This document shows, piece by piece, positions 1,847 through 56,146 of a stretch of 64,000 nucleotides of DNA. A model generated the notes under the pieces. It did not search any database. It was given only the letters and a program-made list of their open reading frames with translations, and was not told where the DNA came from. Positions within the stretch are counted from its first letter, which is position 1. Each line of letters opens with the position of its first letter. Source of the DNA: Methanobacteriota archaeon (lineage in GTDB: Archaea; Thermoplasmatota; Poseidoniia; Poseidoniales; Thalassarchaeaceae); assembly GCA_011523055.1 (NCBI GenBank), contig WTHQ01000020.1, positions 80,114 to 144,113 on the forward strand, in the 5' to 3' direction. The position numbers were made by a program, and so were the translations under genes.

Positions 1847-1870
1847 GTGCTTTCTATCTATGCAGAGTTC

Positions 1871-4678
1871 ATGTCCTATGAAATATCAGGCATATGGAGA
1901 TGTCCCAATTGCAATCATCACCAACCTTGGAAATCTAGCAAAAGGGAGCTTAAGGCCTTGGATAGAAAATGCACAAAGTGTTCAGAAAGGACTAGGATAA
2001 TGATTCACAGGTCACCAACTGGCCAAGGCCGCACGTCCCATGCAAAAGTATGGATTAGGGAAAAACATAGTGACTCAGACCTTGAGAGTGAGGCGAGAAG
2101 CAGGAACAATCCATTGCATGAGGGACCCGATGAGTACAGCGGTGATCAATCTGACTTGCCAAAGATTTGGGGTCGAGGGTGGAAGCCCACGGAACATTTG
2201 ACCTTTGATAAGGCGATTAAACCGGATTACGTCATCAATGAAGTTCTGAGGTTCACAGCCGAAAGGTGGGATGGTTACCTGGAATTAATCAGAGATGCTC
2301 TCAAAGAATGCGTCGGTACAAAGTCAATGAACGGTGAGGAATTTCATGAGTGGTCAGAGCTGTTTTGCGATCACGTGCATGAATCATTCGATGACAGGCT
2401 TCATACACCAAAAATCAACAGTATCTTGCTGACTGAAATTATCCCGAAGAGGGATGGTAGACTCTATCTGTCAAGAAGAAGGGATAGGTTGCTGTTAGAC
2501 TTGCGCCTTCTTCTCAGAAGGCTTGCGCACTTGGCTTCAATCACCAAAGAAGAGCGTCTTCATTGGCATAGACTGATGTTGAGGACCAGAGTTTTGGACG
2601 GACATCTAAAGGAGCTTTTCGTTGAGGGAGTCGAAACTCCTGACGGGGGCAATTTTGGAGGGAAGGGTTTCAGATCGACCTGGCAAGAGCCTATCGCTGC
2701 ATGTGGCACAGCACTGCAACTGGGGAATGACGTGGCTGCTCCGATGATCAGGGATCTTGGGCTCGCACTCTCAATGGGGCAGACGCCACTATCAATCATG
2801 TCTGCACAGATGGGTAAGTCTGGATCGCAGATGAATGGCGGCCACCCTAACTTCGGGGGCAGAGACCTACATATCGGAGATTGGAATTATGGCATTCTTC
2901 CACCCACTGCCCCGTTACCCATTGCAAGTGCGACTGCTACGGGAATCGCTCTTGCATCATCAAGAAACGGGAACGGAGTGTTCACACTTGCTCCCGTTGG
3001 GGAGGGTTGCAGTAGCAGCGGGGAGTTTTGGGAAGCGATAAACTTCGCAGGCGCTAGGGGGCTCCCAATATGTTACATCATCCAAAACAATCAGATTGCA
3101 CTTGACACATTCTCAAACAAACAATCAGGGGCAGAGACATTCGGGGATAAGGGAGCTTCGGTTGGGCTTCCGGCTTGGAGCATAGATGGGTCTGACCCAG
3201 CGATCTACTATGCTTCGGTTGCAGTGGCCCGAGAGCTTTCTGTTTCTGGATTTGGGGGCTGCATCATACATGTCGAAACCATGAGGGGTTGTGGCCATGC
3301 GCATCATCACGATGACCTCTATCTTGGTGCAGAAAGTGGCAATCCACCAGGCTACGTCGGACAGGACTTAATCCAGTATTGGTCCAAAAAGGAACCAATC
3401 GAAAATCATGAACGGCTGCTGATAGGAATGGGTGTCAGTGCCAAATTACTGAAGTCAATTGTTGACGAAGAAGTCGCTCTTTGCGGGGAGGCGCGATTGG
3501 CCGTGGAGTCCATGGCTTGGCCCGAGCCGGAGACCGTGGCTGTCGGAACGACAAAGCTGACAGATGCAAGAACGCACGAGCAACAGATCAAGGATCTTGA
3601 GGGCGTCCAAAAACTGGTCGGCCATTCGGACCTGGGGCCAATGGAATTCGATGATGCGGTTAACTCGTGGAGTTTCAGTAGAGCAATTCAGAACGCAATG
3701 GTCAATATCGCGGATAATGATGGGGAAAACGTACTATTCATGGGCGAGGACATGGAAATTGCCGGGGCCTTCGGATTGAATCTCGCCCTCAAGGCCAAAG
3801 GGCACGGTGGGAAACTTCTCGACATGCCATTGTCTGAATCTATCATCATAAACGGAGCAACGGGAGCTGCCTTGGCCGGTCTTCGCCCGATCGCGGAGAT
3901 ACAATTCGGAGGGTTCGCCGCTCTGGCAATGAACGCTTTGGTGAACAATGCCGCTCAACTGAGATGGAGATGGGGGGCCAATGTCCCCCTCACAGTGAGA
4001 ATTCCGTTGGGCGGGAAAACGAGAAGTGGGCCGTATCATGCCAATGTGATAGAATCTTGGTTTCTGAATGACCCAGGGCTTTTGATTGGGTTCCCGTCAA
4101 ATCCCCAAGATGCCTATGATCTACTCATTGAGGGGCATTCGTTGGATGACCCTTTCGTACTCTTGGAACACATTGGATTGTACGGATTGCGTGGGGGCCT
4201 GACTGGTTGGGGAGATCGAATAAGCCAGCGCGTCGACACCGAATCGGTGAGGGAGAGACTGCGACAAGGCATGCACACCATTGGAAAAGCGAGAGTAGTG
4301 AAACGAGGTGGGGATGTCTCAGTGATAACTTGGGGTGCAATGGTTCACGTTGCCATGAATGCCGCCAGAGTGCTTTCCAAGGAGGGGATCGATGTAGAGG
4401 TAATTGACCTCAGGACCCTGAATCCACTGGATAGGGGCACATGCGTACAATCTGTCAAAAAGACCGGTCGCATGATCGTTCTACAAGAATCGCAATGGAC
4501 TGGCGGCTTCGGGCACACGATATCATCTGCAGTGCTCGAAGGGTCGTTTTGGTCACTAGAGGCCCCGCCGATTGTAATCGGGGCCCTCGACGTGCCGGTT
4601 CCTTTCTCCCCTCCTCTGGAGGACCACACCATACCTGATGTGGATCTCCTTTCCCAGCATGTCAGGAGATTGGTGTGA
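1871..4678 (+). CDS. Fused E1 alpha-beta component of a TPP-dependent 2-oxoacid (pyruvate/branched-chain/acetoin-type) dehydrogenase, with an approx. 230-aa N-terminal extension carrying a C4 zinc ribbon
   Basis: E1-alpha TPP motif GEGCSSSGEFWEAINFAGARGLPICYIIQNNQ (GDG-x-NN type). E1-beta transketolase-like region MEIAGAFGLNLALKAKG...AEIQFGGFAALAMNALVNNAAQLRWRWG. N-terminus MSYEISGIWRCPNCNHHQPWKSSKRELKALDRKCTKCSE. Open reading frame continuous from GTG 1847; first ATG at 1871. Confidence 0.75.
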   Translation: MSYEISGIWRCPNCNHHQPWKSSKRELKALDRKCTKCSERTRIMIHRSPTGQGRTSHAKVWIREKHSDSDLESEARSRNNPLHEGPDEYSGDQSDLPKIWGRGWKPTEHLTFDKAIKPDYVINEVLRFTAERWDGYLELIRDALKECVGTKSMNGEEFHEWSELFCDHVHESFDDRLHTPKINSILLTEIIPKRDGRLYLSRRRDRLLLDLRLLLRRLAHLASITKEERLHWHRLMLRTRVLDGHLKELFVEGVETPDGGNFGGKGFRSTWQEPIAACGTALQLGNDVAAPMIRDLGLALSMGQTPLSIMSAQMGKSGSQMNGGHPNFGGRDLHIGDWNYGILPPTAPLPIASATATGIALASSRNGNGVFTLAPVGEGCSSSGEFWEAINFAGARGLPICYIIQNNQIALDTFSNKQSGAETFGDKGASVGLPAWSIDGSDPAIYYASVAVARELSVSGFGGCIIHVETMRGCGHAHHHDDLYLGAESGNPPGYVGQDLIQYWSKKEPIENHERLLIGMGVSAKLLKSIVDEEVALCGEARLAVESMAWPEPETVAVGTTKLTDARTHEQQIKDLEGVQKLVGHSDLGPMEFDDAVNSWSFSRAIQNAMVNIADNDGENVLFMGEDMEIAGAFGLNLALKAKGHGGKLLDMPLSESIIINGATGAALAGLRPIAEIQFGGFAALAMNALVNNAAQLRWRWGANVPLTVRIPLGGKTRSGPYHANVIESWFLNDPGLLIGFPSNPQDAYDLLIEGHSLDDPFVLLEHIGLYGLRGGLTGWGDRISQRVDTESVRERLRQGMHTIGKARVVKRGGDVSVITWGAMVHVAMNAARVLSKEGIDVEVIDLRTLNPLDRGTCVQSVKKTGRMIVLQESQWTGGFGHTISSAVLEGSFWSLEAPPIVIGALDVPVPFSPPLEDHTIPDVDLLSQHVRRLV

Positions 4679-5694: not shown

Positions 5695-6291
5695 ATGATC
5701 GACGAGGGCGTCCCAGACTGTCTGATACTTGCATCAGGCCTCAGCAGAAGACTAGGCTACGACAAAGCAACTATCCAATTGGGTGAAACGACACTCTTGT
5801 CAGCCATGATTGAAACCATGAAGGATCATGGAATGAAGACTTGCGTCGTGATTGGTCCGACTTCAGACGAAGCGGGGAGCAGTGACTCTGTGATTTTCGT
5901 CAGAAACGAGAATCCGGATCATGGGAGGACTGGGTCAATACAGGTTGGGTTAGAGGCTCTCGGTTGGCCCGAGAGGGTGATTGTGGCCCCGGTTGACAGA
6001 CCAGGATTTAGCTCAAGGACGCTAAAGAGGCTTTTTTCTGCCGATTCGAGTGCCAGCCCAGAGAAACAGGGCCGAGGGGGCCATCCGGTTTTTTTGGACG
6101 ATGAGGGAGTCATGGCCGTCAGGGATGCTCATCCAGACTCACCGTTGAATTCTCTCATTGACTTTTCCCGCTTCGAGGTCGATGATCCATATTTACACCT
6201 GAATGTGGACACCTCAGAGGACGTCATGTCCTTGAAGATGGCATGGGACGAAATATCAGACTCATGGAAAGTCAACCCCAACCCAGAGTAA
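5695..6291 (+). CDS. MobA/MocA-like molybdenum-cofactor nucleotidyltransferase (likely molybdopterin cytidylyltransferase for an MCD cofactor)
   Basis: N-terminal LILASGLSRRLGYDKA NTP-transferase motif, about 190 aa, sits next to XdhC and an XDH-family enzyme. Confidence 0.6.
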   Translation: MIDEGVPDCLILASGLSRRLGYDKATIQLGETTLLSAMIETMKDHGMKTCVVIGPTSDEAGSSDSVIFVRNENPDHGRTGSIQVGLEALGWPERVIVAPVDRPGFSSRTLKRLFSADSSASPEKQGRGGHPVFLDDEGVMAVRDAHPDSPLNSLIDFSRFEVDDPYLHLNVDTSEDVMSLKMAWDEISDSWKVNPNPE

Positions 6292-7467
6292 TAATAGCCC
6301 ACAAATAAGTCCGGGCAACAGGGTGTGAACAGTGGCCCATAGTGAGGCGGTGCGATGACGTACCAAAAGTGGGAACAGGGCATCTCCGTCCTGAGAGATG
6401 GCATTCGCAACCAATGCCGGGAAGGAAAGAATTCCTTCAACGTAGGCAGTTATTGCAATGATTTGGGGCCCACACCCTGGAATTAGGCCGATGGTTGCAG
6501 CTACTGCTATTGCCCCAGGCCCGTCTCCATTGGTGGCTAGGTCGGATTCAGTCGCCCCAGTTGAAAGCAATAATCCCTCAAAGACCAGGTAGGCTGCTAG
6601 GACCCACGTCGTGACAAAGGCCGTCTCCGATGCGGCGTGGGTCAGCGTTTCATCAAACGAGTGAAGCTTGTCCCCAATAGTTGCCTCAGTGTCATCTGCG
6701 ATGAAGCTCTTCCCTGCGATGTACAATACCAAAGACAGTATCGTGCCAGCCACCCCCACAACAGTGAGAATTCCATCTCTTGTGGACAAATCCCATGACA
6801 GCTCAGGATTGTAACTAGGTTCCCTGGCCAACCAAAATATGAGTAGTACCCCAAGGATGAAGCCGACCATAGTGACTAGCCACCATAACTTGTACCCACT
6901 ATGGACTATCTTGTAGGACAGAGTGCCTGGTTCCTCCCTCGGTAAATTGGAGATGATGTCAGTCATCTCCTTTTTCTCACTCCGGTCCTCTAATGTTTGA
7001 ATCGCCAGATTTCGTTGTGTAATTTTGGGCTTCATTCCGAAGGGGCTTTCAGGTGTGATCATCAACAAATCAGCCCCATAGCCCCAGATCACCCCAGCTA
7101 GGAATGAAATTAGGTGAACGAGGATCACTGGGGCGAGGAATTGATTGTCTTGAATCGCTGCCCCGAACAAAACAAAGGCAGAATCCCCCAGGGTGGCAAT
7201 CAGGGTCGCCAATACAGTCCCGTAGGTGACATAGCCCTTCGCGAACATCGGCATCATGATGATTGCTCCACCGCAACCGGGAATCACGCCCATTAGTGCT
7301 CCGATGAGTGGTTGCCATCTCTTACTCGACCTGATCCAATCAACGAACTTTCCAGCGGTAAGGTACTGTAGCCAGCTGAAGAGGAGGACCATGACGGCGA
7401 CGAACACCGTGACGGCAAGAAACGCATCACGCATTGCAACCAGAATCGTCTCCAGCAGTGGGTTCAC
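6262..7467 (-). CDS. Polytopic membrane protein with two internal repeats, each carrying a conserved IPGCG motif. Permease/transporter of unknown substrate.
   Basis: 401-aa ORF, about 10 TM helices. Motifs GVIPGCGGAIIMMPMF and GLIPGCGPQIIAITAYVEG sit in the N- and C-terminal halves. Located inside the Mo-cofactor/XDH locus. Confidence 0.55.
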   Translation of the reverse strand: MNPLLETILVAMRDAFLAVTVFVAVMVLLFSWLQYLTAGKFVDWIRSSKRWQPLIGALMGVIPGCGGAIIMMPMFAKGYVTYGTVLATLIATLGDSAFVLFGAAIQDNQFLAPVILVHLISFLAGVIWGYGADLLMITPESPFGMKPKITQRNLAIQTLEDRSEKKEMTDIISNLPREEPGTLSYKIVHSGYKLWWLVTMVGFILGVLLIFWLAREPSYNPELSWDLSTRDGILTVVGVAGTILSLVLYIAGKSFIADDTEATIGDKLHSFDETLTHAASETAFVTTWVLAAYLVFEGLLLSTGATESDLATNGDGPGAIAVAATIGLIPGCGPQIIAITAYVEGILSFPALVANAISQDGDALFPLLVRHRTASLWATVHTLLPGLICGLLLLWVGVDFP

Positions 7468-7493
7468 GGTTGTTACAAAAGGCTGGAAGACTT

Positions 7494-8360
7494 ATGACTT
7501 CCCAATGGCTGCAGGAGAAAAAGTGCAAGAGCACCGACGCGGAGATGTTTTTTTTGGGATCAATGACTCTGAGGTGGGCGTTGCACCAATTGGATTTATG
7601 CAATACCGTAGCCATGGCCTCAATAATTGACTCGGATGGTAGCGTCCCTGCCAAAGTGGGGGCGAAATTGGCATTTTCCACCTCTGGAGACAGACATGGC
7701 ACAGTCGGAGGAGCCGGTCTGGAACTCAAAATCGAACACAGACTGAGATCGATACTCAATGGTTCCGAGGGGGGAATTGAGACCTTCGTCCTCTCCAAGT
7801 CATCTAGTGATCCTTCCACCACCAACCTAAACAGCCTCTGTGGTGGCCGGGTGACTGTGGCATTCGAGAGGTTGGATCCAAGCCCCCATATTCTACTGAT
7901 GGGTGGCGGCCACGTTGCAAAAGCCATCAGCGAGGCATGTGAACTCTTGGGATGGCGACATAGCGTCTTTGATGAACGTGGGGAATACGCGTCCTCAGAG
8001 TCATTCCCCGCCTCAGTAGAAAGAATCCATGCCAGCGCAGATGAGTTCCTTGAAATTGAGACTGCCACGTCACTCTCACGGTTTTCCGATATTCTCCTGC
8101 TCGGCCATGACTGGGCGATAGATCAGAAGCTGTTGATTGGGCTGCTGTCATATTCCGAGGATATTCCATGTAGGATAGGGTGCATAGGATCAAAGACCAA
8201 GTGGAGAGAATTCACAAAGTCAGCGAAAGGAGAGGGAGTTTCAGACGATCGTTTGGGTTTGGTCAGATGCCCAATCGGCGCCCCGATAGGAGCTGTGACC
8301 GTGGAGGAGATAGCATTCGCTGTCTGTGGCGAGATCATCTCGCTCATCAGGACCTCGTGA
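7494..8360 (+). CDS. XdhC/CoxI-family accessory protein (Mo-cofactor insertion/maturation for XDH-family enzymes)
   Basis: N-terminal XdhC_CoxI-like segment VAMASIIDSDGSVPAKVGAKLAFSTSGDRHGTVGGAGLE. Rossmann-like XdhC_C LLMGGGHVAKAISEACELLGWRHSVFDER. First ATG at 7494; the listed ORF start 7434 is TTG. Confidence 0.7.
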   Translation: MTSQWLQEKKCKSTDAEMFFLGSMTLRWALHQLDLCNTVAMASIIDSDGSVPAKVGAKLAFSTSGDRHGTVGGAGLELKIEHRLRSILNGSEGGIETFVLSKSSSDPSTTNLNSLCGGRVTVAFERLDPSPHILLMGGGHVAKAISEACELLGWRHSVFDERGEYASSESFPASVERIHASADEFLEIETATSLSRFSDILLLGHDWAIDQKLLIGLLSYSEDIPCRIGCIGSKTKWREFTKSAKGEGVSDDRLGLVRCPIGAPIGAVTVEEIAFAVCGEIISLIRTS

Positions 8361-8398
8361 CTAATCCGCTTCAAGCGCCACCTTCAATTTCATAACCA

Positions 8399-9067
8399 AT
8401 GGCAATGCAACAAACACTCGTGCGTAGGGTTAGGCTTAGGTGGAGTCGCTCAGACTTAGAAGGGGTAGCAGAGTTCAAACAGTTGATGGATGCTGTAAGA
8501 AAATACGAGGTGCTTGCCCACATGAAGCTGGGTGAAGAGGGTATCGAGCATCTCGCTGAGATAATCCCTGTGAAAGGTGAGTTGAGCGCAATGGATGACA
8601 TTCCAACTTTCGATGTGCTGGAAGTCCATGAGAAGGATGATGACTCTGGCTCATACCTAGTCTCTGTGAATCTTACACATTCCCTCCCGATGATGATGTT
8701 AGACCTGGAAAAAATACACTTACATCCGCCATATGGTTTAGACGAAGATGGACTCGAATTGAATTTTACTGGCCGATCAGACTCAATGAAGCGTCTCATT
8801 GAATTGCTGAGGATGATGATGCCCTGGGATTCGATCAGCATACAATCCGTCAGGAGCAATGTAGGCGACATGTGGCGAGGGATATTGACCGACCGACAAA
8901 TAGAAGTTCTTCGCCAGGCTGTAAATCTAGGGTACTACTCAGACGAGAGAGGGATCAAGATAAAAGATCTCGCAGAAAGTATGGGGATGGCAAGGTCCAC
9001 GATGGGGGGGCATCTCAAACTGATAGAACAATCTGTGATGTCAAAGGTGGTTGACGACTTAGGCTGA
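8399..9067 (+). CDS. Archaeal transcription regulator with C-terminal bat-type HTH_10 domain
   Basis: C-terminal LTDRQIEVLRQAVNLGYYSDERGIKIKDLAESMGMARSTMGGHLKLIEQ matches the bacterio-opsin activator HTH_10 pattern. Immediately upstream of the CoxSLM-like genes. Confidence 0.7.
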   Translation: MAMQQTLVRRVRLRWSRSDLEGVAEFKQLMDAVRKYEVLAHMKLGEEGIEHLAEIIPVKGELSAMDDIPTFDVLEVHEKDDDSGSYLVSVNLTHSLPMMMLDLEKIHLHPPYGLDEDGLELNFTGRSDSMKRLIELLRMMMPWDSISIQSVRSNVGDMWRGILTDRQIEVLRQAVNLGYYSDERGIKIKDLAESMGMARSTMGGHLKLIEQSVMSKVVDDLG

Positions 9068-9108
9068 CTAGCCCTAAGTCTCTTACACCTAGCAACAAGT
9101 CGAGGAAC

Positions 9109-9675
9109 ATGGCCCCGCAACCTCTGCCTTTGGCGGACGACGCCCCAGTGGCTGTTTGGAGTGCGGTAGTGAACGGTAATCCTGTCCGTGCGATCATAAA
9201 GAGTCATGATGTTCTGCTCGATGTAATCAGAGACGGAATCGGGTCACTAGGGACCAAGAGAGGGTGCGACATGGGAACCTGTGGCTGCTGCACTGTTATG
9301 ATTGATGGCAAACCAAGACTATCTTGTCTGACTCTTGCGATGGAGGCAAAAAACCACCAAATCACCACGGTGGAGGGTCTCTCCGACGGACATTATCTAC
9401 ATCCAATCCAAGATATGTTTGCCGAATGTGGTGGAAGTCAATGTGGATTTTGTACTCCGGGGTTTCTCGTTGCCAGTGCAGCGTTGTTGGATGGAAACCC
9501 AACACCAACAAGAGAGGAGGCCATGCAAGCCATAGAGGGTAACCTATGCAGATGCACGGGATACCAGCAAATTATCGATTCAATAATGAGCGCATCCAAG
9601 ATACTTTCTGAGGGGTCGCAGATTCAGGCCACCACCGAGCCAGCTAGCGATCCCCACCCGAATTCCAGGGGCTGA
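9109..9675 (+). CDS. [2Fe-2S] small subunit of xanthine dehydrogenase/aldehyde oxidase/CoxS family
   Basis: Plant-type ferredoxin motif CDMGTCGCCTV and second cluster motif CGFCTPGF...NLCRCTGYQQI. Confidence 0.85.
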   Translation: MAPQPLPLADDAPVAVWSAVVNGNPVRAIIKSHDVLLDVIRDGIGSLGTKRGCDMGTCGCCTVMIDGKPRLSCLTLAMEAKNHQITTVEGLSDGHYLHPIQDMFAECGGSQCGFCTPGFLVASAALLDGNPTPTREEAMQAIEGNLCRCTGYQQIIDSIMSASKILSEGSQIQATTEPASDPHPNSRG

Positions 9676-9679
9676 GCTA

Positions 9680-12454
9680 ATGTCGAAGGACAAGGAGATA
9701 GTCGGATATCGCCAACAGCCAGGCAAACTTGACTTTACTAGGCCAGGATCGGGTGGTTCCTCCCCCCTCTCAGAGGACAGGGACCCGGAAATGATTCCTG
9801 CGAGCCAAGGGGGGGAATTAGAGCAACCATGGGGCGCCCATCGTCATGACAACCTGGTCACAGGCAGGGTTATTGGGAAGAGGACGCCCTTGATTGACGG
9901 CAAGTGGAAGGTGACGGGGCAGGCCATTTACGGTGACGATGTCAGATTGCCGGGCGAGATAATCGGCCGCTTGGTGAGGACTGATCGCCATTACGCAAAA
10001 GTTCTCTCGATTGATATGACTGAGGCCGAGTCCATTCCGGGCGTTATCGCAACGGCGACGGGGGTAGACGCCCCATCCGCCTTTGGAGTCTTACCTGTTA
10101 CTAAGGACGAGCATGCAATGGCACTGGAGAAAGTGAGGCATATTGGAGACATTGTTGCATGCGTGGCTGCAGTTGACGAAGAGACCGCCAGGCTAGCGGC
10201 CAGCAAGGTCCAAGTGGAATACGAAGGGCTTGAACCGATTTTCGACATGAGGGACGGGTTGAAGAATTCGACAGACCCGATCCACGATAGAGGAAAATAC
10301 CACATTGGGGAGTCCAATGTTCAGAAAAGAGTGTTCCAGAGGTTCGGAAGAATATCCGACTTGGAGAAATCAATGGCCTCGTATGATGATGATTGGACAT
10401 TTAAGGGCGTGAATCATGGGTTTACAGAGCCACATGCGGTGGTGGCCCACTGGGATCCTAGGGGCCGTCTCACCCTCTACACCCCTCAGCAAGTTCCACA
10501 TTACGTTCATAGGGCTCTAGCAGATGTTTTGGAAATTCCAATGCACCAGATAAACGTCCACAGGACCTATGTGGGAGGTGGCTTCGGAGGGAAGTCCGAC
10601 CCATTCCCTCACGAGATGTGCGCAGCTATACTAGCGAGGAAGAGCGGTAGACCCGTTAGAATCACGTTTGATAGGGAAGAGGTTTTCTGGACAAACAGAG
10701 GACGTCACCCTTCCAGGATTTCAATGTCGATCCATGCTGATGATAAAGGGAGATTAAGCGGGATAGAAACTGACGCGTTGATCGATGGAGGCGGTTTCGC
10801 CTCGTTCGGTCATGTGACCACTTACTACAACGGGGTTCTCCATACCGCACCCTACGAGATAGGGGCATTCCATTACACTGGAGCAAGGGTCTGGACAAAC
10901 AAACCCGCCAGCGGGGCCATGAGAGGGCATGGGGCAGTAAACTCAAGGTGTGCAGTGGAAGTTGGGATTGACCACATCTCCGAAGAGATGGACGTGGACC
11001 CAATTGATCTCAGGCTCGCAAACCTCCTTCCGCCCAATTCAGCAACGATAACCGGTTTCAGGATAACTTCAATCGGAATGAGAGAGTGTCTTGAGAAGGT
11101 TCGCAGACAATCTGGATGGGACGAAAAGTTCAGGAAAATGCCTCTAGGCAAGGGAATTGGGGTAGGCTGTGGCTTCTTTATTTCTGGTAGTGGCCTACCG
11201 ATACACTGGGATCCCAACAAGTTTCCTCATGCCACCGTCCATCTGAAGATTGACATGGATGGGGGGGTTACAGTTCATACCGGTGCGGCTGACATTGGGC
11301 AGGGCTCCGACACTGTTGTTGGACAAGCGGTGGCCGAGGTCCTTGGCCTTCCTATGGACATGATAAGGATCAGGTCGAAAGAGTCAGACACATCTCCGGT
11401 CGATCTTGGTTCTTACTCCAGCAGAGTCACCTTCATGAACGCAAATGCAGCTGTCTCCGCTGCCATGGAAATAAGGTCCAACCTTATCGATGCTGCGTCC
11501 GAACTGACAGGCGTGGAGAGGGCTGACCTGGTTCTCGGAGATAGGCGAATATTCAACAAGAAGGATCCGGGCGTGGGAGTTTCCTACCTCGAAGCATTGC
11601 ACAAGGCACAGGAAGACAAAGGTGCTCTGATAGCCTCTGGGTCTTACAGAACGCCGCCCATGGGGAAAATGCACAAGGGCGCTGCTGCCGGATTGGCTCC
11701 TGCCTACTCCTTCTCTGCTTATGTCGCAGAGGTGGATGTCGATGTCGAGACAGGGAAAATCAAGGTAGAAAAAGTATGGGCAGCACATGATTGCGGAAAG
11801 GCTCTGAACCCACTCTCAGTTGAAGGGCAGATTATCGGATCATGCCACATGGGGCTGGGACAAGTCATATCCGAGGAGATGAAATACGGAAGAACTGGGA
11901 ACCTTCTGAACCCAGACCTCCTCGGCTACAAGATCCCGACGGTCCATGAAATGCCGGAGGTCGTCCCTATAATCGTAGAGTCAAATGATCCAGAAGGGCC
12001 ATTTGGAGCCAAGGAGGCGGGCGAAGGGCCCCTGTTGCCAATCCTCCCCGCGGTTTGCAATGCTGTCTACGACGCCATTGGAGTGAGGGTAAATGAGTTG
12101 CCACTCACCCCTGACAGATTGCACAGGGCAATAGAAAGGACCTGTAAGCATAAGGGGGTCAAAGATCCACGAGATCTCCCCAATCCATCTCTTCAGAAGG
12201 GGGCTTTGTCCGATGTGCTGATTGCACGGGCCGAGGTTCACTCAGAGAGAGACAAACAGAGAAGATTGAATCCAAATCCAGAGGCATACTTCAACGGGCA
12301 ACTATTCAACCATCTTACTACAGGGCCCCCGGAAGAGCATGATCCTGAATGGACTATTCAGGTTCTGCCAGACGAGGAGTATCTGAACAACCCGAAACTG
12401 GCTGGCAGCGCTTGGCTTCACAAGGAAAGAAGGCACATGGAGGAGTCTGGATGA
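9680..12454 (+). CDS. Molybdopterin-binding large subunit of an XDH/CoxL-family hydroxylase (substrate unknown; not a canonical CO dehydrogenase), with N- and C-terminal extensions
   Basis: YVGGGFGGK Mo-binding signature. Active-site loop reads TNKPASGAMRGHGAVNSRC, which is A-x-R-G-x-G type and lacks the AYRCSFR Cys motif of form-I CODH. 924 aa versus about 780-800 typical; approx. 150-aa unique C-terminal tail. Confidence 0.85.
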   Translation: MSKDKEIVGYRQQPGKLDFTRPGSGGSSPLSEDRDPEMIPASQGGELEQPWGAHRHDNLVTGRVIGKRTPLIDGKWKVTGQAIYGDDVRLPGEIIGRLVRTDRHYAKVLSIDMTEAESIPGVIATATGVDAPSAFGVLPVTKDEHAMALEKVRHIGDIVACVAAVDEETARLAASKVQVEYEGLEPIFDMRDGLKNSTDPIHDRGKYHIGESNVQKRVFQRFGRISDLEKSMASYDDDWTFKGVNHGFTEPHAVVAHWDPRGRLTLYTPQQVPHYVHRALADVLEIPMHQINVHRTYVGGGFGGKSDPFPHEMCAAILARKSGRPVRITFDREEVFWTNRGRHPSRISMSIHADDKGRLSGIETDALIDGGGFASFGHVTTYYNGVLHTAPYEIGAFHYTGARVWTNKPASGAMRGHGAVNSRCAVEVGIDHISEEMDVDPIDLRLANLLPPNSATITGFRITSIGMRECLEKVRRQSGWDEKFRKMPLGKGIGVGCGFFISGSGLPIHWDPNKFPHATVHLKIDMDGGVTVHTGAADIGQGSDTVVGQAVAEVLGLPMDMIRIRSKESDTSPVDLGSYSSRVTFMNANAAVSAAMEIRSNLIDAASELTGVERADLVLGDRRIFNKKDPGVGVSYLEALHKAQEDKGALIASGSYRTPPMGKMHKGAAAGLAPAYSFSAYVAEVDVDVETGKIKVEKVWAAHDCGKALNPLSVEGQIIGSCHMGLGQVISEEMKYGRTGNLLNPDLLGYKIPTVHEMPEVVPIIVESNDPEGPFGAKEAGEGPLLPILPAVCNAVYDAIGVRVNELPLTPDRLHRAIERTCKHKGVKDPRDLPNPSLQKGALSDVLIARAEVHSERDKQRRLNPNPEAYFNGQLFNHLTTGPPEEHDPEWTIQVLPDEEYLNNPKLAGSAWLHKERRHMEESG

Positions 12455-13455
12455 AGACCCCGGCATTTGAACTCCACATACCCACCACTTTGAAGGAGGC
12501 CCTGGGCATAGCCAGAGAATTGCATGAAAGGGGGCATGACTTTGACTGGATATCCGGGGGGACTGACCTAATTCCAAATTACAAGTGGGGAATCAACCCT
12601 CGACCTCATGTCATATCAATTTCAGGAGTTGATGAACTCAAGGGAATCTCCCCCACCAGGATTGGGGCGATGGCGAGATTGCAGGATATCGTGGAATCAC
12701 CGGTTGCGCACCCACTGATTGTTGAGGCGGCTGGGACGATTGCGAGTATAATGATCCGCAGGTCAGGGACACTTGGAGGGAACCTTTGCCTAGATACTAG
12801 GTGCTTCTGGCTCAACCAATCAGAGACATGGAGGAAGTCGATAGATTACTGTCACAAATGCGATGCGGGGACGGGTGCGGATTGCAGAGTGATCCCAAAC
12901 CAGAATGAGCTCTGTGTTGCGACCTACCAGGGAGATCTAGCACCTGCACTGATGTGCCTGGACGCAAGTGTTCACCTAGCCTCCCATAGGGGTACTCGGA
13001 GCATGCCGCTTGAGGACTTCTTCCAAGAAGACGGCATCACAAGAAACGTACTACAACAGGGAGAGATAGTCACACACGTCGAGATTCCAAAGGGTTCTAC
13101 GAGCGTAGTCGGGTCCTACCAGAAACTTCGTCATCGAGAGGCGTGGGATTTCCCAGAGGGGGGTGTCGCCTTCTCGGTATCACTCTCTGATGACGGCACC
13201 CCTGTTTCATTCAACATGGCTAGCACAGGGTTTGAGAGCATTCCTCGCAAGCATCACGATTTGGTTGAAACTATCTCAAAGGGTCCTGATTGGGCCGTGG
13301 AAGCAGAACGACTTGGGGTAGAACTCAAGAGAGCGGTCCGGCCCGTGCTAAACACGTGGTTCCCCCCAGCATATCGAAAGAAAATGGCCTCAGTGTTGGC
13401 CAGAAGAGCCATGGAAGAAGCCTCAAAAAGACTTACTTCGGCTTGGCAGTCATAG
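12451..13455 (+). CDS. FAD-binding medium subunit (CoxM/XdhB-like) of the XDH-family enzyme
   Basis: MKTPAFELHIPTTLKEALGIARELHERGHDFDWISGGTDLIPNYKW is a FAD-binding molybdopterin-dehydrogenase signature. Its ATG overlaps the CoxL stop in an ATGA arrangement (12451-12454). Confidence 0.8.
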   Translation: MKTPAFELHIPTTLKEALGIARELHERGHDFDWISGGTDLIPNYKWGINPRPHVISISGVDELKGISPTRIGAMARLQDIVESPVAHPLIVEAAGTIASIMIRRSGTLGGNLCLDTRCFWLNQSETWRKSIDYCHKCDAGTGADCRVIPNQNELCVATYQGDLAPALMCLDASVHLASHRGTRSMPLEDFFQEDGITRNVLQQGEIVTHVEIPKGSTSVVGSYQKLRHREAWDFPEGGVAFSVSLSDDGTPVSFNMASTGFESIPRKHHDLVETISKGPDWAVEAERLGVELKRAVRPVLNTWFPPAYRKKMASVLARRAMEEASKRLTSAWQS

Positions 13456-14351
13456 GCTTCCACCTATTATTGAGCATGGGTATCGCCACTGGACAAGATG
13501 GCCCAGGGGGATGGTCGGTGTCCATTTCAGATGAAAACGGGGAGTCCCAGAAAATTACACTTTCACAAGGTGGTGGCTCCTCTATACCGATACTAGTCGA
13601 AAATAACGAAATATTCGGTACCATAACAGTCTCCCTGGACTGCACTGCCCCATTTGAGGCACAGGTATCCTGTCCAGCTGATGTGACGGTGACCTCAGGA
13701 GAGAACACCACAGTATACGGAGTGGTGAGCGATGTCGATGTTCAGAGTATCCCAGCTGGTACGAATGAGTTGTTCGAGGTAACTGGCACAGTCGTAGCCA
13801 GGAATGGAGTTCCGATCGTACTCCCCGGGGACACGGATTCTGACGACGTTCCAGTTGAAATCCCAGAGATTTACAACCTGGAAGTGACCATCGACGATCC
13901 AGTAGGCCCGATAAACGCTGGAGCCGATACAATCCTGAAGGTCTTCGTCAAAAACATGGGCAACATTGCGGATAGAGTCTCCGAAACTGATGTCTCAGTG
14001 GATTGTACGCTCATAACGGTAGGAGGGCAGACTTCTGAGATAACAAATACCGAAATTGCGATCGGTGCCTCAATTTCAACAAACCTCGTATTTGAGGCTG
14101 CACTTAGCCACCCATCTAGATCGTGCGACGTGGAAATCCAGATTATATCCCAGGGTTCTGGCGGTAGCCAAACATCAACCGACTCTACAAGAATTGAAGT
14201 GCAAGCCGCAACAGATGATAATGAAGAGAAGAAGCCGACTGAAGATGACACAGGGACTGTCGAGGTAGTTACCACTGGACTTCCCTCAATAGGAATTCTT
14301 GGATCTACAGCATCATTGTTGATCGCGGCCTTTTTGCGAAGGAAGTCCTGA
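13443..14351 (+). CDS. Secreted, C-terminally membrane-anchored surface protein with CARDB/Ig-like fold region
   Basis: Signal-like N-terminus (KKTYFGLAVIGFHLLLSMGIATG). Body VTIDDPVGPINAGADTILKVFVKNMGNIADRVSETDVSVDC. C-terminal TM plus basic tail LPSIGILGSTASLLIAAFLRRKS. No in-frame ATG before the signal; TTG 13443 is proposed and the start is uncertain (the listed ORF TTG 13290 overlaps coxM). Confidence 0.5.
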   Translation: MAVIGFHLLLSMGIATGQDGPGGWSVSISDENGESQKITLSQGGGSSIPILVENNEIFGTITVSLDCTAPFEAQVSCPADVTVTSGENTTVYGVVSDVDVQSIPAGTNELFEVTGTVVARNGVPIVLPGDTDSDDVPVEIPEIYNLEVTIDDPVGPINAGADTILKVFVKNMGNIADRVSETDVSVDCTLITVGGQTSEITNTEIAIGASISTNLVFEAALSHPSRSCDVEIQIISQGSGGSQTSTDSTRIEVQAATDDNEEKKPTEDDTGTVEVVTTGLPSIGILGSTASLLIAAFLRRKS

Positions 14352-14439
14352 ATTCTCCTGCGTTTTCTAAAATGTGATTTCAACCCTCCTTCAGCAACCT
14401 ATAACACCTCGGGAATGCCCCAGACTTCTGTCGGCCTCC

Positions 14440-16089
14440 ATGGGGGGGCCTCAGTGGGCGGGGAATATGGCCAAAACAGACTCTGATACCGAGCGGTTCA
14501 ACAGAATCGTTGTTTGGTCACTCGGAGCCACTGCGGTCTTGCTACTGATCCTGCCTATGTTCTTCGTGTTGTCCAATGTGACCTACTACTCTGCCTATGT
14601 GGATAGTGGTGACACTGACGAGGAGAAATTCGCTCAGCTCTCAACAATGAGGTCTACACTAATGGAAGATTTGGACAGGGGAAATGGGGATGTCTCATTG
14701 GGATATGACGTCGCCAATACCATCTCAACCCCGATGCTCGTCAATGACTGGAGGGACCCCCACAGAAGCATGCTAGTGATAGTGGGGCCCGAGAAGCCGA
14801 TTGACCAGACTGAGGCACGGTCTATCCATGACTTCGTAACTAAATCAGGTGGGAAGGTGATCGTCGCTGCCGAAAACTCGAATGCCAACGAGCTGGCTTC
14901 CCTATTCGGAGTGACTTTTTTTGATGACCCCCTACACGACGAAAACCAACATTTCCTGATATACAACGAAGATGGAGAGCCCTACGCCCCATCATGGAGG
15001 AACGTTTGGTCTGCTGCCTCAGTTAGCCAGGACGTTGAATCCATGCAGCCTGCTTACCTCAGCCAAGTATGCACAGACGATCAAATCAGGAACAACCTCA
15101 TGACAAATTGCAGGCTCCCCCTGATGTTCAGATCCCCGACAGGAATGAAGTTTGAACCGACCAACATGGACCAGTCAGACCCTGAACATAGAACCGTGAA
15201 GATACTAGCCAAAGCTTCCTCAGGAGCGTTCATCGACGTCGCAGGCACTGGCGACGCTGGTGACTACAGAAACCCTGCCCCCGGGGACTTGGCCCTTGTC
15301 ATACGTGTGGACTACCCTGTGAAAGCATATGACAAGCCGCAAGAAAGTCAAGGTGGTTTCGCCGGCACCTCGGAGGTTGCCGAGGTTGACGTCACTGGAA
15401 GCATTACGTTCGTTGCAGATGATGAGGCATTCTCGAACATGCTATGGGATCTGCAACAAGCCCAAACCCAAGGAATAAGGTCAAACTGCGATACTGTGAA
15501 CTCCTGTTGGCTGGACGTCCTGCCCGAGGGGCAGTGGAATGGAAACTCAATGTATTTTTCAGCTTTGATTTTCGATATGATGGAACACAGGAACCCTGAT
15601 CTCTCATCCACATTCAGGGACGATAAATCACAATATCAGGTTGTTTTTGATGAAAGCAGACACTCCACAGGAAGATTATCCGCGCCCTTTGTCGAGACGA
15701 TGGGGACCGTGGTTCTTCTGACCTCTAACCCATTCTTGAAATGGCTCGTGGTCCTAAATGTCGGATTATTGCTTCTGGTGTCTATGATGGTTGTGCCGCA
15801 GAAGGAGAATTGGAGGCACGTGTTTGACCTGACCAGGTTCAAAGAAAGGCCTGGAAAGCTAGATCCCTCGACCTACAGAGAAAGGGTCCAACAGGCATTG
15901 TTCACCAAGGTGAGGGTTCACTATGATTTGACAAGAGACCAGTTAGCCCTCAAGCCCCCGTCCGAGGTTCAGGACATGATCAATGACCCCAAGCTAGTAG
16001 AATTGGCATACAGCCAATCTCGCGTTTACCATTCCCAAGAATTGCGACAATTGATGATCGCTATTCGTAAATGGGGGAAGCAAAACTGA
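14440..16089 (+). CDS. Membrane-anchored protein of the MoxR/DUF58 module (N- and C-terminal TM helices, large extracytoplasmic domain)
   Basis: N-terminal TM IVVWSLGATAVLLLILPMFFVL and C-terminal TM VVLLTSNPFLKWLVVLNVGLLLLVSMMVV. Sits directly upstream of MoxR. Alternative ATG at 14467. Confidence 0.55.
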   Translation: MGGPQWAGNMAKTDSDTERFNRIVVWSLGATAVLLLILPMFFVLSNVTYYSAYVDSGDTDEEKFAQLSTMRSTLMEDLDRGNGDVSLGYDVANTISTPMLVNDWRDPHRSMLVIVGPEKPIDQTEARSIHDFVTKSGGKVIVAAENSNANELASLFGVTFFDDPLHDENQHFLIYNEDGEPYAPSWRNVWSAASVSQDVESMQPAYLSQVCTDDQIRNNLMTNCRLPLMFRSPTGMKFEPTNMDQSDPEHRTVKILAKASSGAFIDVAGTGDAGDYRNPAPGDLALVIRVDYPVKAYDKPQESQGGFAGTSEVAEVDVTGSITFVADDEAFSNMLWDLQQAQTQGIRSNCDTVNSCWLDVLPEGQWNGNSMYFSALIFDMMEHRNPDLSSTFRDDKSQYQVVFDESRHSTGRLSAPFVETMGTVVLLTSNPFLKWLVVLNVGLLLLVSMMVVPQKENWRHVFDLTRFKERPGKLDPSTYRERVQQALFTKVRVHYDLTRDQLALKPPSEVQDMINDPKLVELAYSQSRVYHSQELRQLMIAIRKWGKQN

Positions 16090-16107
16090 AAAACAGGAGC
16101 GAATGAA

Positions 16108-17172
16108 ATGTCAGACACACCACCGCCACCAGCCAGTAGTAAGAACAAATCGAAGAACGCAGATAAAATTGAGGAAGGCTATGCAAAGAAGGCAGCAGAG
16201 GCCCGTGGAGGAGAGAAGGTTAGCGATCGGCTTACAGCCGTAAGTGCAATTGCGAAGGCAATCTCCGGCGAAGTACAGAAGGTCATTATCGGGAAATCTC
16301 ACGTCATTGACAACGTCCTGATAAATATCCTATCCAACGGCAACCTACTTTTCGAGGATTATCCTGGATTGGCGAAGACCCTGATGACGAATACTTTCGC
16401 AGATGCATTGGGTTGCGACTTCAAGAGGGTTCAATTCACCCCTGACCTGCTTCCAGCGGATATCACTGGAACGAACATCTATGATGCCAAGAAGGGAGAG
16501 TTTACGTTCAAGCCTGGACCAATATTTTGCAACCTTCTCCTGTCTGACGAGATTAACCGAGCCCCGCCAAAGACGCAAGCTGCGTTGCTAGAGGCGATGC
16601 AAGAAAAGCAGGTCACCATAGGAACTGTGACGCACAAACTACCTGCACCTTTCTTGACGATGGCCACACAGAACCCCGTCGAGCAAGAAGGGACATACCC
16701 GCTCCCCGAGGCTCAACTTGACAGGTTCATGTTCAAGATGAGCGTCGGCTACCCCGACAGAGGAGACGAGGACGAGATACTCGCTCGTAGAATAGAGCGA
16801 AAGAAGGACGATGTAGATGTCGAAGTGATCACCGATCCGTCCCGAGTAGTGGCCATGCAAGAGGCAATAGAAGACGTGTATGTTGACCCCGCTGTCAGGA
16901 TGTACATGGTAGAAGTTGTTGCAAGGACCAGGGAAGACCCGCGTGTCCTAGTGGGGTCATCTCCCCGTGGCTCCCAGGCATTGCTGAAGACCTCTCGTGC
17001 TGCGGCTGCAATGCGCGGAAGAGATTTCGTAACACCTGATGACGTCAAGTCAGTCGCAACACTGGCTGTATCCCACAGACTGATTCTGAAGCCAGAACAT
17101 CAGATTAAGGGCCTAGAGACAGAGGAAGTTGTGCGAGACATATTGAATCAGGTTCCAGTACCAACTGTATGA
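16108..17172 (+). CDS. MoxR-family AAA+ ATPase
   Basis: AAA_3 signature VIIGKSHVIDNVLINILSNGNLLFEDYPGLAKTLMTNTFADALG and LLSDEINRAPPKTQAALLEAMQEKQVTIG. Has an approx. 50-aa Ala/Lys-rich N-terminal extension. Confidence 0.85.
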   Translation: MSDTPPPPASSKNKSKNADKIEEGYAKKAAEARGGEKVSDRLTAVSAIAKAISGEVQKVIIGKSHVIDNVLINILSNGNLLFEDYPGLAKTLMTNTFADALGCDFKRVQFTPDLLPADITGTNIYDAKKGEFTFKPGPIFCNLLLSDEINRAPPKTQAALLEAMQEKQVTIGTVTHKLPAPFLTMATQNPVEQEGTYPLPEAQLDRFMFKMSVGYPDRGDEDEILARRIERKKDDVDVEVITDPSRVVAMQEAIEDVYVDPAVRMYMVEVVARTREDPRVLVGSSPRGSQALLKTSRAAAAMRGRDFVTPDDVKSVATLAVSHRLILKPEHQIKGLETEEVVRDILNQVPVPTV

Positions 17173-17229
17173 ATTTCAACCTAATTGTGGACAGGAGGGA
17201 TTGCACTGGCGTGGAGCAGAAAGTCAGCG

Positions 17230-18525
17230 ATGTTCGCATCACTGGCAATCGGGCTCTATCTACTTGGACTTGTTTTGAGAAATCAGCAACTTGTTACAGT
17301 CGCAGTCGTTCTGCTCTCATTCCTGACCTATGCTGCATTCAGAACCACGCACGCCGACGTGGCCTCCGCTGGGAGAAGGCTTGAGGACAACGATTCGGAC
17401 GAGGGGATTCAACTCGGTGGAATTTCAGCTCTGAGGAAGGTGTCTTCCTCGAGGGTATTCGAGGATGGCGAGATTGACGTAATTCTCAGAATTCAAAACA
17501 GGACGCCCATGGCGAAAATAATCGAGGTCAGGGACAGGGTGCCAGAGGTCATGCGGATAAAGAAGGGGGCGAATTACGTACTGATGGAACTCGGAGGCAG
17601 AAGAGAGACTGAAATTTCCTACACCATAGAGGCCCCTCTCAGAGGTTTCTACACCATTGGCCCTGTTTGCGTAAGGATCCAGGACACCTTCGGCCTGTTC
17701 CACAATGAACGTGAGATACAGCTCTATGATGACTTCCTCGTATTCCCCAAGATGGAGGACATCAAGGACGCCATGATCAAGAGTAAAGTCCCCAAGATAT
17801 TCACAGGTGCGGTGAACATAAGAAACCCAGGAGAAGGGTCCAATTTCTACAACCTCAGGGAGTACATTCCTGGGGACCCCATGAAGAAAGTGAATTGGAA
17901 TGCTACTGCAAGGAGTGGCGGGAAGATGATGGTGAATGAATACGAGAGGGACGCAGTTAGCGATATCATCCTCATAGTAGACAGTCGTGCGATAAGCGAA
18001 ACAGGTCCTGTGAGCCGGAACTCGTTGGTATACAGTACTCGAGCAGCTGCCAGCCTAGCGCAACATTTCCTTGCGAGACGTGATTCGGTTGGTCTCGTGA
18101 CCTATGGGGATGAAATTGTGTCTGTTGACAGGGACACAGGAAAAAAGCAACTTTACGTAATCCTAACCAAGTTGGCTGGAGCGGTTGCCAAGGGCAATAC
18201 TCCCTTGAGGGTTGTAACGAATAGGCTGATGCCGCATATCAACAGAGGAAGCCCGATCATCATACTCAGCCCATTAGAAGACGATCCAACCATCATTGAT
18301 GCCGTAAGGGACCTCAGAGCTAGGAATTTCATGGTCACCATACTTTCCCCCAGTAGCATTGATTTCGAGTTCGATGCCAGGAGGTTAGACCCGGTGGGCT
18401 ATGAGCTCCTCAAGACCGAGAGGGACATTCTGATGTCTGAGATTAGGGGGCTAGGGGCCAACATCATGGATTGGGAACCAGAAATGCTGCTTGTTACTGC
18501 CCTAGCAGGGGCAAGAGGATACTGA
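17230..18525 (+). CDS. DUF58 protein with vWA-like domain (MoxR partner)
   Basis: Hallmark DUF58 motif LREYIPGDPMKKVNWNATARSG. vWA-like DVSDIILIVDSRAIS. Two N-terminal TM helices. ATG 17230; a TTG alternative lies at 17185. Confidence 0.8.
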   Translation: MFASLAIGLYLLGLVLRNQQLVTVAVVLLSFLTYAAFRTTHADVASAGRRLEDNDSDEGIQLGGISALRKVSSSRVFEDGEIDVILRIQNRTPMAKIIEVRDRVPEVMRIKKGANYVLMELGGRRETEISYTIEAPLRGFYTIGPVCVRIQDTFGLFHNEREIQLYDDFLVFPKMEDIKDAMIKSKVPKIFTGAVNIRNPGEGSNFYNLREYIPGDPMKKVNWNATARSGGKMMVNEYERDAVSDIILIVDSRAISETGPVSRNSLVYSTRAAASLAQHFLARRDSVGLVTYGDEIVSVDRDTGKKQLYVILTKLAGAVAKGNTPLRVVTNRLMPHINRGSPIIILSPLEDDPTIIDAVRDLRARNFMVTILSPSSIDFEFDARRLDPVGYELLKTERDILMSEIRGLGANIMDWEPEMLLVTALAGARGY

Positions 18526-18534
18526 GGTGCGAAT

Positions 18535-20572: not shown

Positions 20573-20574
20573 TG

Positions 20575-22367: not shown

Positions 22368-22373
22368 GGGCTA

Positions 22374-29456: not shown

Positions 29457-29523
29457 AGTTTTCGAATTGGCAGGTACTTCATCAAACCGTTGGCTTATTT
29501 TTTGGAAACCCCGTTGAAGATAT

Positions 29524-29608
29524 TGGTGCAGGGGACAGGATTCGAACCTGCGAAGCACTACGCACTGGGACCTAAACCCAGCCCCTTTGACCGCTCGGGA
29601 ACCCCTGC
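29524..29608 (-). tRNA. tRNA-Leu (anticodon UAG), type II with long variable arm, CCA encoded
   Basis: Reverse complement GCAGGGGUUCCCGAGCGGUCAAAGGGGCUGGGUUUAGGUCCCAG...GCAGGUUCGAAUCCUGUCCCCUGCACCA. Acceptor GCAGGGG/CCCCUGC, anticodon loop UUUAGGU, T-loop UUCGAAU. Confidence 0.8.
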
Positions 29609-29828
29609 TTGAGCCATGGGGCGTCACCGTCTATATTTTACAATGCCGAGGGGTGAAATCTAGCACTATCCATACTTTTGGAGATTCAAACCTTGTCCTT
29701 TGCACTACCAGAGCGATTATTTTCACAACTTGGCACTTACGTCCAGCAGCTTTTCCGCCCCTGTAGTTGGAAATCTCCCATCAAGGTCATAACGGATTCG
29801 TGCCGGCGGGAGGAAATAGGGTGGTCCG

Positions 29829-42683: not shown

Positions 42684-42784
42684 ATCTCTATTTCTCCTAG
42701 CCTGGGCTGCGCTGCGCATGGCTTGGGGGAGTAGCAATGGTCTCTTATTATTTGCCGCCGGATGGACGTTGAAACGGCCTGACG

Positions 42785-47255: not shown

Positions 47256-47323
47256 GTCCCTTGCACATCACCGCGGCTCGCTCGTGCTGCACGTGTGCGC
47301 TTGCAAGGATGTGTATTCCCGAA

Positions 47324-56079: not shown

Positions 56080-56146
56080 AACCCCCCTTCATCGAAGCAT
56101 CCAGAAGTTGAGATTATACGGTGGCTGCTTCGAAGATCACACAGGC

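Follow-up and report, generated by a model that had tools for sequence, protein, structure and literature searches.

A conserved molybdenum-enzyme locus of Marine Group II archaea encodes a divergent relative of 4-hydroxybenzoyl-coenzyme A reductase

What does the molybdenum hydroxylase of Marine Group II archaea act on? The question is raised by a locus at positions 5,695 to 13,455 of a 64,000-nucleotide stretch of DNA from a Thalassarchaeaceae archaeon (contig WTHQ01000020.1 of assembly GCA_011523055.1, positions 80,114 to 144,113 of the forward strand), the whole of which is called the window below. An earlier note on this DNA, made from the letters alone, had described a self-contained molybdenum-enzyme system and had left its substrate among purines, nicotinate, aromatic aldehydes and others. 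Here, the products of the three structural genes, S, L and M, are assigned with high confidence to the 4-hydroxybenzoyl-coenzyme A (CoA) reductase lineage, as divergent relatives of HcrCAB. The best explanation overall, which we favour with moderate confidence, is that the locus specifies a complete enzyme of the HcrCAB type, with molybdenum, iron-sulfur and flavin centres, that has its own cofactor genes and regulator and would carry out aryl-CoA chemistry. All seven open reading frames (ORFs) of the earlier description sit where it had placed them, with strong family matches. The features of the locus are the following, with M binding flavin adenine dinucleotide (FAD).

5695 to 6291, + strand: MocA-like nucleotidyltransferase (Pfam NTP_transf_3, E 2e-24)
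6262 to 7467, - strand: ArsP_2-family permease with ten transmembrane segments and two IPGCG motifs (Pfam ArsP_2, E 3e-82)
7494 to 8360, + strand: XdhC-family chaperone for cofactor maturation and insertion (Pfam XdhC_C, E 5e-26; XdhC_CoxI, E 2e-10)
8399 to 9067, + strand: HTH_10 transcription regulator (Pfam HTH_10, E 2e-15, residues 163-214)
9109 to 9675, + strand: S, the gamma (small) subunit, which carries two [2Fe-2S] clusters (Fer2_2, E 1e-29)
9680 to 12454, + strand: L, the alpha (large) molybdenum-cofactor subunit, 924 amino acids, HcrA-like (MoCoBD_1, E 1e-65; MoCoBD_2, E 4e-74; Hammerhead also matched)
9680 to 9868, + strand: N-terminal extension of L, amino acids 1-63
10901 to 10939, + strand: active-site loop of L, KPASGAMRGHGAV, amino acids 408-420
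12134 to 12451, + strand: C-terminal extension of L, amino acids 819-924
12451 to 13455, + strand: M, the beta (medium) FAD subunit, HcrB-like (FAD_binding_5, E 6e-35)
12787 to 12915, + strand: cysteine-rich insertion of M, amino acids 113-155, predicted [4Fe-4S] site
544 to 1665, + strand: ThiF plus rhodanese (MoeZ/UbaA-like) sulfur-activating enzyme, context only (Pfam ThiF, E 3e-75; Rhodanese, E 2e-12)

The family placement was observed directly. L matched the structure of Thauera aromatica HcrA (1rm6_A) over residues 64-818 with an E value of 1e-185 and 622 bits, compared with 252 bits for the next-best solved structure (a CoxL), and its identity to HcrA was 41.8% across 759 residues. M matched 1rm6_B (E 2e-44, 155 bits), and the best NCBIfam model of S, L and M was in each case that of the matching 4-hydroxybenzoyl-CoA reductase subunit. 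The HcrA model gave 795 bits with L, and no other NCBIfam model gave more than 518. In a neighbour-joining tree of 145 sequences, computed without bootstrap support, the archaeal clade grouped with the representatives P0121, P0123, P0122 and P0129, and this joint group was nested in a 20-member clade that also contains Thauera HcrA and the genuine HcrA representative P0136. An exhaustive search of 1.8 billion representatives returned, outside the archaeal group, no sequence above 54% identity to L. The earlier note had asked whether L would fall firmly into a characterised clade; it does group with HcrA, but as a separate sub-lineage that stays under the orthologue cut-offs.

The metal-proximal residues of L are identical to those of HcrA. 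This holds for Gln271, Tyr383 and Glu782, which align with HcrA Gln214, Tyr326 and Glu726, for Trp510, for GSYSSR (L residues 577-582) and for the loop KPASGAMRGHGAV, in which residues 412-418, GAMRGHG, are the same in Thauera HcrA and in P0136. The earlier note had likened this loop to the AFRGFG and AYRGAGR types, a comparison that has to be replaced by the identity with HcrA.

The second signature of the lineage, which the earlier note had missed, lies in M. The alignment of M to 1rm6_B runs through the HcrB-specific insertion of about 40 amino acids, and Cys118, Cys134, Cys145 and Cys155 of M align with cysteines 122, 138, 146 and 155 of 1rm6_B. These four 1rm6_B cysteines are taken to be the [4Fe-4S] ligands of HcrB. 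The M cysteines are kept in 85/85 related archaeal loci, and the four-cysteine loop is also kept in M of three bacterial relatives (P0121, P0122 and P0123). Cys118, Cys134, Cys145 and Cys155 are thus predicted from the alignment to be [4Fe-4S] ligands.

The cofactor motifs of the enzyme are directly visible and intact. Both [2Fe-2S] cysteine motifs are present in S, the flavin motifs GGTDL and TLGGN are present in M, and the coding sequences suggest that the S-L-M enzyme as a whole is intact. The ATGA overlap of the L stop with the M start, described before, was seen again.

L carries two extensions that set the archaeal proteins apart. Structure and representative matches span only residues of about 60 to 825. 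With the solved HcrA as yardstick, the N-terminal extension comes to about 63 amino acids, close to the 60 first given, and the C-terminal one to about 105 (residues 819-924) instead of 150. The earlier note had called both unique and had named frameshift artefacts as a possible cause. The extensions are real and conserved but not unique to this sequence: both are near gap-free in all 120 homologues listed, the C-terminal one at 45-60% identity. Identity across these 120 homologues is 45-65% in the extensions and 53-99%, mostly above 70%, in the core blocks. The N-terminal extension holds the motif Y-x-QQPGK-xx-F-xx-PGSGG, with Y10, Q12, Q13, P14, G15, K16, F19, P22, G23, S24, G25 and G26 invariant; the C-terminal one holds 21 invariant residues, including H854, R857, D858, W891, W912, H914, E916 and R918. 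Because they are conserved across the homologues with invariant residues, the extensions are not frameshift artefacts and are under selection. Outside Marine Group II, none of the 150 best representative matches aligns to them, and neither extension matched Pfam or the solved structures of the PDB. A structure model of L made from a 43-sequence alignment was poor (mean predicted local distance difference test score, pLDDT, 54.8), and only its C-terminal helix calls were used: helices are predicted at 811-825 and 843-863 (block pLDDT 79-90), the N-terminus being of low confidence.

Small ORFs lie between L and M in some relatives, one of 42 amino acids in one archaeal lineage (L004-L006, 12757-12885) and a lipoprotein-like one of 141 amino acids in the bacterial P0121 locus (L087, 8050-8475). 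The C-terminal extension was considered as a fused copy of the small ORF of the P0121 locus; the two have no similarity.

Homologues with 73-99% identity are abundant in ocean metagenomes, and the names given to some of them are Marine Group II archaea, Ca. Poseidoniales or Ca. Thalassarchaeaceae. In a scan of one genome per species, 445 stretches encode a relative. Among the best 80 of these 445, each specifically named genome is from Poseidoniales/Marine Group II, the others carrying generic archaeal titles only, and in all 80 genome loci the match covers nearly the whole of L. The cluster was syntenic in 86/86 fetched loci. The S-L-M enzyme is a distinct, extension-bearing archaeal subfamily found order-wide in Marine Group II; its conservation and lineage-specific extensions were, like the family placement, observed directly.

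The nearest relatives of L, P0121-P0124, are bacterial (47-54% identity), and their neighbourhoods give a first indication of the chemistry. Three of them sit in benzoyl-CoA-reductase-like clusters, whereas the archaeal locus does not. Around P0123 (50%) there are three genes each of the HGD-D and BcrAD_BadFG types, one BcrAD_BadFG gene being joined to an AMP-binding CoA-ligase domain, as well as a short-chain dehydrogenase and a thiolase. P0124 (47%, Ignavibacteriales) has two genes of each type nearby, with an acyl-CoA dehydrogenase, a MocA-like gene and a 2-oxoacid:ferredoxin oxidoreductase, and P0122 (49%) is accompanied by two HGD-D genes, by XdhC and by a MocA-like gene. Class I benzoyl-CoA reductases have this make-up of HGD-D with BcrAD_BadFG, and so do related CoA-ester dehydratases; whichever of these classes applies, the neighbours of P0122-P0124 are, by their domain content, enzymes that act on CoA thioesters. 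Like archaeal L, P0121-P0124 have the motifs GGK-SD-PF(P/A) and T-YY(N/S)G, and P0121 and P0123 also have GCGFF/GCGFY. Unlike it, they are without the long extensions, and in two of them S is fused to L.

The closest characterised system, HcrCAB of Thauera aromatica (PDB 1RM6/1SB3), has the same three subunit types as the locus and the [4Fe-4S] cysteine loop in its FAD subunit, and the MocA-type and XdhC-type accessory genes of the locus fit a cytosine-dinucleotide cofactor, as in HcrCAB. The two differ in the alpha subunit, which is 42% identical, has four other motifs in the metal-distal pocket and in the archaea adds the extensions of 63 and about 105 amino acids. The host of the locus is also an aerobic planktonic archaeon, unlike that of HcrCAB. 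The only other known reductive dehydroxylase of the enzyme family is the urolithin C dehydroxylase Ucdh/UcdCFO of Enterocloster. Ucdh is described as more distant from 4-hydroxybenzoyl-CoA reductase (32.7% identity); it is without the [4Fe-4S] loop, uses reduced nicotinamide adenine dinucleotide (NADH) and acts on a free polyphenol.

By analogy with HcrCAB, we tentatively propose that the enzyme removes or adds a hydroxyl group on an aromatic acyl-CoA, with electron transfer linked to ferredoxin. The ring hydroxyl would be removed, or added in reverse, on a compound akin to 4-hydroxybenzoyl-CoA, and the pocket residues suggest that the substrate is probably related to 4-hydroxybenzoyl-CoA and not identical to it. 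Electrons would be exchanged between the substrate and a ferredoxin-type partner, along a chain from the putative [4Fe-4S] cluster of the beta loop to the FAD of beta, the two [2Fe-2S] clusters of gamma and the molybdenum cofactor of alpha. Glu782 would be catalytic, in a pocket presumably lined by Gln271, Tyr383, Arg415, His417 and Trp510. The electron path, the CoA-ester substrate and the reaction direction are what we infer from the analogy. A two-gene 2-oxoacid:ferredoxin oxidoreductase is encoded at 47261-50142 on the + strand (a fused POR/POR_N subunit and a TPP_enzyme_C subunit), and it could serve the molybdenum enzyme as source or sink of ferredoxin electrons.

Several observations weigh against this proposal. 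All three subunits score under the curated cut-offs of their models: L at 795 bits with TIGR03194 (cut-off 994.55), M at 223 bits with TIGR03195 (404.55) and S at 165 bits with TIGR03193 (257.8). With TIGR03194, three other archaeal members gave 811-831 bits and P0136 gave 1301.7, and the ten nearest representatives scanned (54-43% identity) are likewise under the HcrA cut-off. Four metal-distal pocket motifs common to Thauera HcrA and P0136, the two sequences that made up the reference set, differ in the archaeal clade: G(A/H)R-TE of genuine HcrA is GGK-SD in L, SHF-VSG is GCGFF-ISG, TPKD-NG is SPVD-LG, and I-LY(T/A)G is T-YYNG. The Methylobacillus aldehyde oxidase shows the four-cysteine pattern of M in its medium subunit too (5y6q_B), and the annotation of E. 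coli PaoB reads 'FAD-binding Fe-S subunit'; because it also occurs in aldehyde oxidase medium subunits, the [4Fe-4S] loop alone is no proof of reductive electron flow. Aromatic gene context is lacking around P0121 (54%) and P0125, two of the five relatives examined. The hosts are mainly aerobic surface-ocean heterotrophs, and 4-hydroxybenzoyl-CoA reductase is oxygen-sensitive and acts in anaerobic catabolism. No aryl-CoA ligase, benzoyl-CoA reductase or ring-cleavage gene was found among the larger annotated ORFs of the 64-kilobase (kb) window, and neither the window nor the 20-kb flanks of the archaeal loci contained a 4-hydroxybenzoate-CoA ligase, benzoyl-CoA reductase or ferredoxin gene. 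Judged from the sequences, by model scores, distal pocket motifs and gene context alike, the enzyme is not a strict orthologue of HcrCAB/HbaBCD.

Several of these points lend some weight to an oxidative hydroxylase of an aromatic or heteroaromatic acid, possibly a CoA ester in the manner of 2-furoyl-CoA dehydrogenase, which would pass electrons out via FAD and [4Fe-4S] to ferredoxin or another acceptor. The aerobic hosts, the lack of a benzoyl-CoA reductase nearby, the distal motifs that depart from the reductive HcrA and the [4Fe-4S]-type loop shared with an aldehyde oxidase medium subunit would all suit it, and most enzymes in the xanthine-oxidase family are oxidative. Reductive aryl-CoA metabolism is instead what the closest characterised enzyme suggests, as do the gene neighbourhoods of the nearest relatives, and we regard the oxidative hydroxylase as possible but distinctly less probable than the HcrCAB-type reaction. 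A literature search pairing furoyl-CoA dehydrogenase with 4-hydroxybenzoyl-CoA reductase found nothing.

A xanthine or purine dehydrogenase that salvages purine nitrogen, the reading that Damashek et al. 2021 (PMC9723583) gave for Ca. Thalassarchaeaceae genomes, is unlikely. In PMC9723583 a putative xanthine dehydrogenase is read from the xdhC and yagS annotations and a xanthine/uracil permease is described as highly transcribed, and the XdhA models do give 511-518 bits with L. Those scores are far under the cut-offs of 780 and 916 and under the score of the HcrA model, and in the supplement of PMC9723583 different pipelines labelled the same locus cutA (glyceraldehyde dehydrogenase), hcrA (K04108) and yagS, with low transcript values; the best eggNOG matches of L and M there are MG2_0570 and MG2_0571 of another Marine Group II genome. 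For the pocket, L was compared with a segment of bovine xanthine dehydrogenase that was checked only by its residue spacing (78, 34, 95 and 252), which matched the published one exactly. In this alignment the Glu802 position is Ser306 in L, no Arg at all occurs in L residues 366-402, a segment that covers the Arg880 region with both plausible gap placements, and His417 and Trp510 stand at the positions of Phe914 and Phe1009, which is also the case in HcrA. Because the metal-proximal residues match HcrA and equivalents of Glu802 and Arg880 are absent, the L pocket is of the HcrA type and not of the xanthine type. E. coli XdhA was dropped as comparator for the xanthine residues, since XdhA itself is without the Glu and the Arg at the aligned positions.

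We give as little credit to a broad-range aldehyde oxidoreductase for detoxification, of the PaoABC or archaeal glyceraldehyde dehydrogenase type. E. coli PaoABC and the Methylobacillus aldehyde oxidase (5G5G, 5Y6Q) are, like the locus product, heterotrimers with an iron-sulfur FAD subunit (the cysteine insertion of M is shared with 5y6q_B, and PaoB has the annotation given above), and NCBI and Prokka names for the relatives include 'aldehyde oxidase' and 'glyceraldehyde dehydrogenase'. The large subunit tells otherwise, with 29% identity to E. coli PaoC, a different pocket with other motifs and far lower scores (316 bits for PaoC with a cut-off of 1180; 313 bits for the glyceraldehyde dehydrogenase alpha subunit with a cut-off of 790). 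PaoABC is described as periplasmic, and, unlike this exported type, S has no twin-arginine motif at its N-terminus.

A form II carbon monoxide dehydrogenase-like CoxSLM, with the MoxR AAA ATPase and DUF58 genes downstream on the same strand as CoxD and CoxE, shares the S-L-M order but is effectively refuted by carbon monoxide dehydrogenase model scores of 270-299 bits (cut-offs 950-991) and by the missing copper-binding Cys of AYRCSFR in the GAMRGHG loop, because of which the L pocket is not of the carbon monoxide dehydrogenase type. MoxR/DUF58 is also absent beside the five bacterial relatives examined. The earlier denial of a bona fide carbon monoxide dehydrogenase, on the grounds of the loop, stands.

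Marine Group II archaea are commonly regarded as aerobes that feed on protein and lipid. According to Rinke et al. (2018) and Damashek et al. (2021), no other planktonic archaea are as abundant in the surface ocean, and none of Marine Group II has been cultured. All Marine Group II encode molybdenum-cofactor synthesis, and nitrate reductase occurs in three genomes only (Rinke et al. 2018). The conserved locus is a clear order-wide user of this cofactor, though not the sole one: one genome has an annotated molybdopterin oxidoreductase that belongs to another family. No paper linking Marine Group II with 4-hydroxybenzoyl-CoA reductase was found in a literature search. Pipelines and one paper have given the enzyme inconsistent labels (xanthine dehydrogenase, aldehyde oxidase, glyceraldehyde dehydrogenase, hcrA). 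Assigning it to the 4-hydroxybenzoyl-CoA reductase lineage, but not to the orthologue group, puts metabolic reconstructions right and directs experiments to aromatic CoA esters instead of purines.

A broader and much more speculative suggestion is that Marine Group II strip ring hydroxyls from, or add them to, phenolic acyl-CoA compounds derived from phytoplankton matter, that the product enters an oxygen-dependent aryl-CoA route, and that the extensions of L fit an oxygen-sensitive enzyme for oxic water or for a new partner. If true, the surface ocean would have an aromatic-carbon sink not described before, and the enzyme class a new physiological setting. Supplementary table 4 of PMC9723583 offers a weak lead in SIMO Bin 19-2 (Ca. 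Thalassarchaeaceae), in which moaC and moaE adjoin a crotonase and a BoxB/PaaA-like di-iron aryl-CoA oxygenase (contig 29, 39763-44740). This oxygenase has comparatively high transcript values (PMC9723583) and may be a downstream partner for an aryl-CoA product.

The genes around S-L-M support the self-contained molybdenum-enzyme locus of the earlier note, made up of cytidylyltransferase, XdhC chaperone, regulator and structural genes. The MocA-like protein probably makes the cytosine-dinucleotide molybdenum cofactor; it gave 69.6 bits with the NCBIfam MocA/YgfJ model, under the cut-off of 186. The XdhC ORF opens at 7434; the in-frame ATG at 7494 gives 288 amino acids, compared with 279-280 in homologues, and is likely the true start. 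The HTH_10 regulator lies directly 5' of S in 79 loci, and a Pfam search with its 160-amino-acid N-terminal domain gave no match. The MoeZ-like gene first placed at 583-1665 is indeed a ThiF plus rhodanese gene, at 544-1665, and is syntenic in relatives. Recent horizontal transfer found no support in base composition, the guanine plus cytosine content of the locus being that of its flanks.

The permease, which the earlier note had regarded as embedded in the molybdenum system, is not part of it. The 70 syntenic loci that have XdhC as well as the MocA-like gene differ in what lies between the two: 32 have an ArsP_2 gene there (23 in the orientation of the window, nine in the opposite one), 15 have nothing and 23 have other cargo, such as a ZIP transporter with two multicopper oxidases. 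The permease gave 228.7 bits with the NCBIfam model 'arsenic efflux protein' (cut-off 100), and arsenic detoxification is found across the order (Rinke et al. 2018). The ArsP_2 permease is metal-resistance cargo and not core of the enzyme system. XdhC and HTH_10 flank another variable slot, where 50/67 loci have a gene of about 1.3 kb; in L001-L003 this gene, where annotated, is peptidase-S8-like, and in the window the slot is empty (8361-8398).

Five tightly packed genes follow 3' of M on the + strand (13422-19461). In order, they encode a 309-amino-acid membrane-anchored protein, the start of which overlaps the end of M, a DUF4350 protein (571 amino acids), a MoxR AAA_3 ATPase, a DUF58 protein and a 308-amino-acid protein. 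Every archaeal locus that extends far enough has them in synteny, MoxR being about 91% identical. A role of MoxR/DUF58 as CoxD/E-like maturation factors was considered and rejected: the module was absent beside the bacterial HcrA-like genes in 5/5 contexts, and synteny among close archaea is uninformative on function. Because they are absent beside the bacterial relatives, the five genes were not counted in the system.

The other annotated genes of the window are for shikimate synthesis, ABC transporters, aconitase, the 2-oxoacid:ferredoxin oxidoreductase, peptidases and large surface proteins. The shikimate row (19481-23165, - strand) consists of a DeoC-family aldolase (possibly ADH synthase), a type II dehydroquinate synthase, a GHMP-family kinase, probably shikimate kinase, and chorismate synthase; all but the aldolase gene are syntenic in relatives. 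A 750-amino-acid ORF at 27375-29627 (- strand) has an over-called start, because it runs over the same-strand transfer RNA-Leu gene at 29524-29608 (-). Two very long proteins are presumably surface proteins, one of 2181 amino acids with FG-GAP repeats (36264-42809, - strand) and a 1566-amino-acid subtilase with a CARDB domain and a C-terminal zinc ribbon (56063-60763, + strand). Upstream of the locus, a 943-amino-acid single-chain 2-oxoacid dehydrogenase E1 (1847-4678, + strand), in which E1_dh, Transket_pyr and Transketolase_C are fused, is syntenic in relatives.

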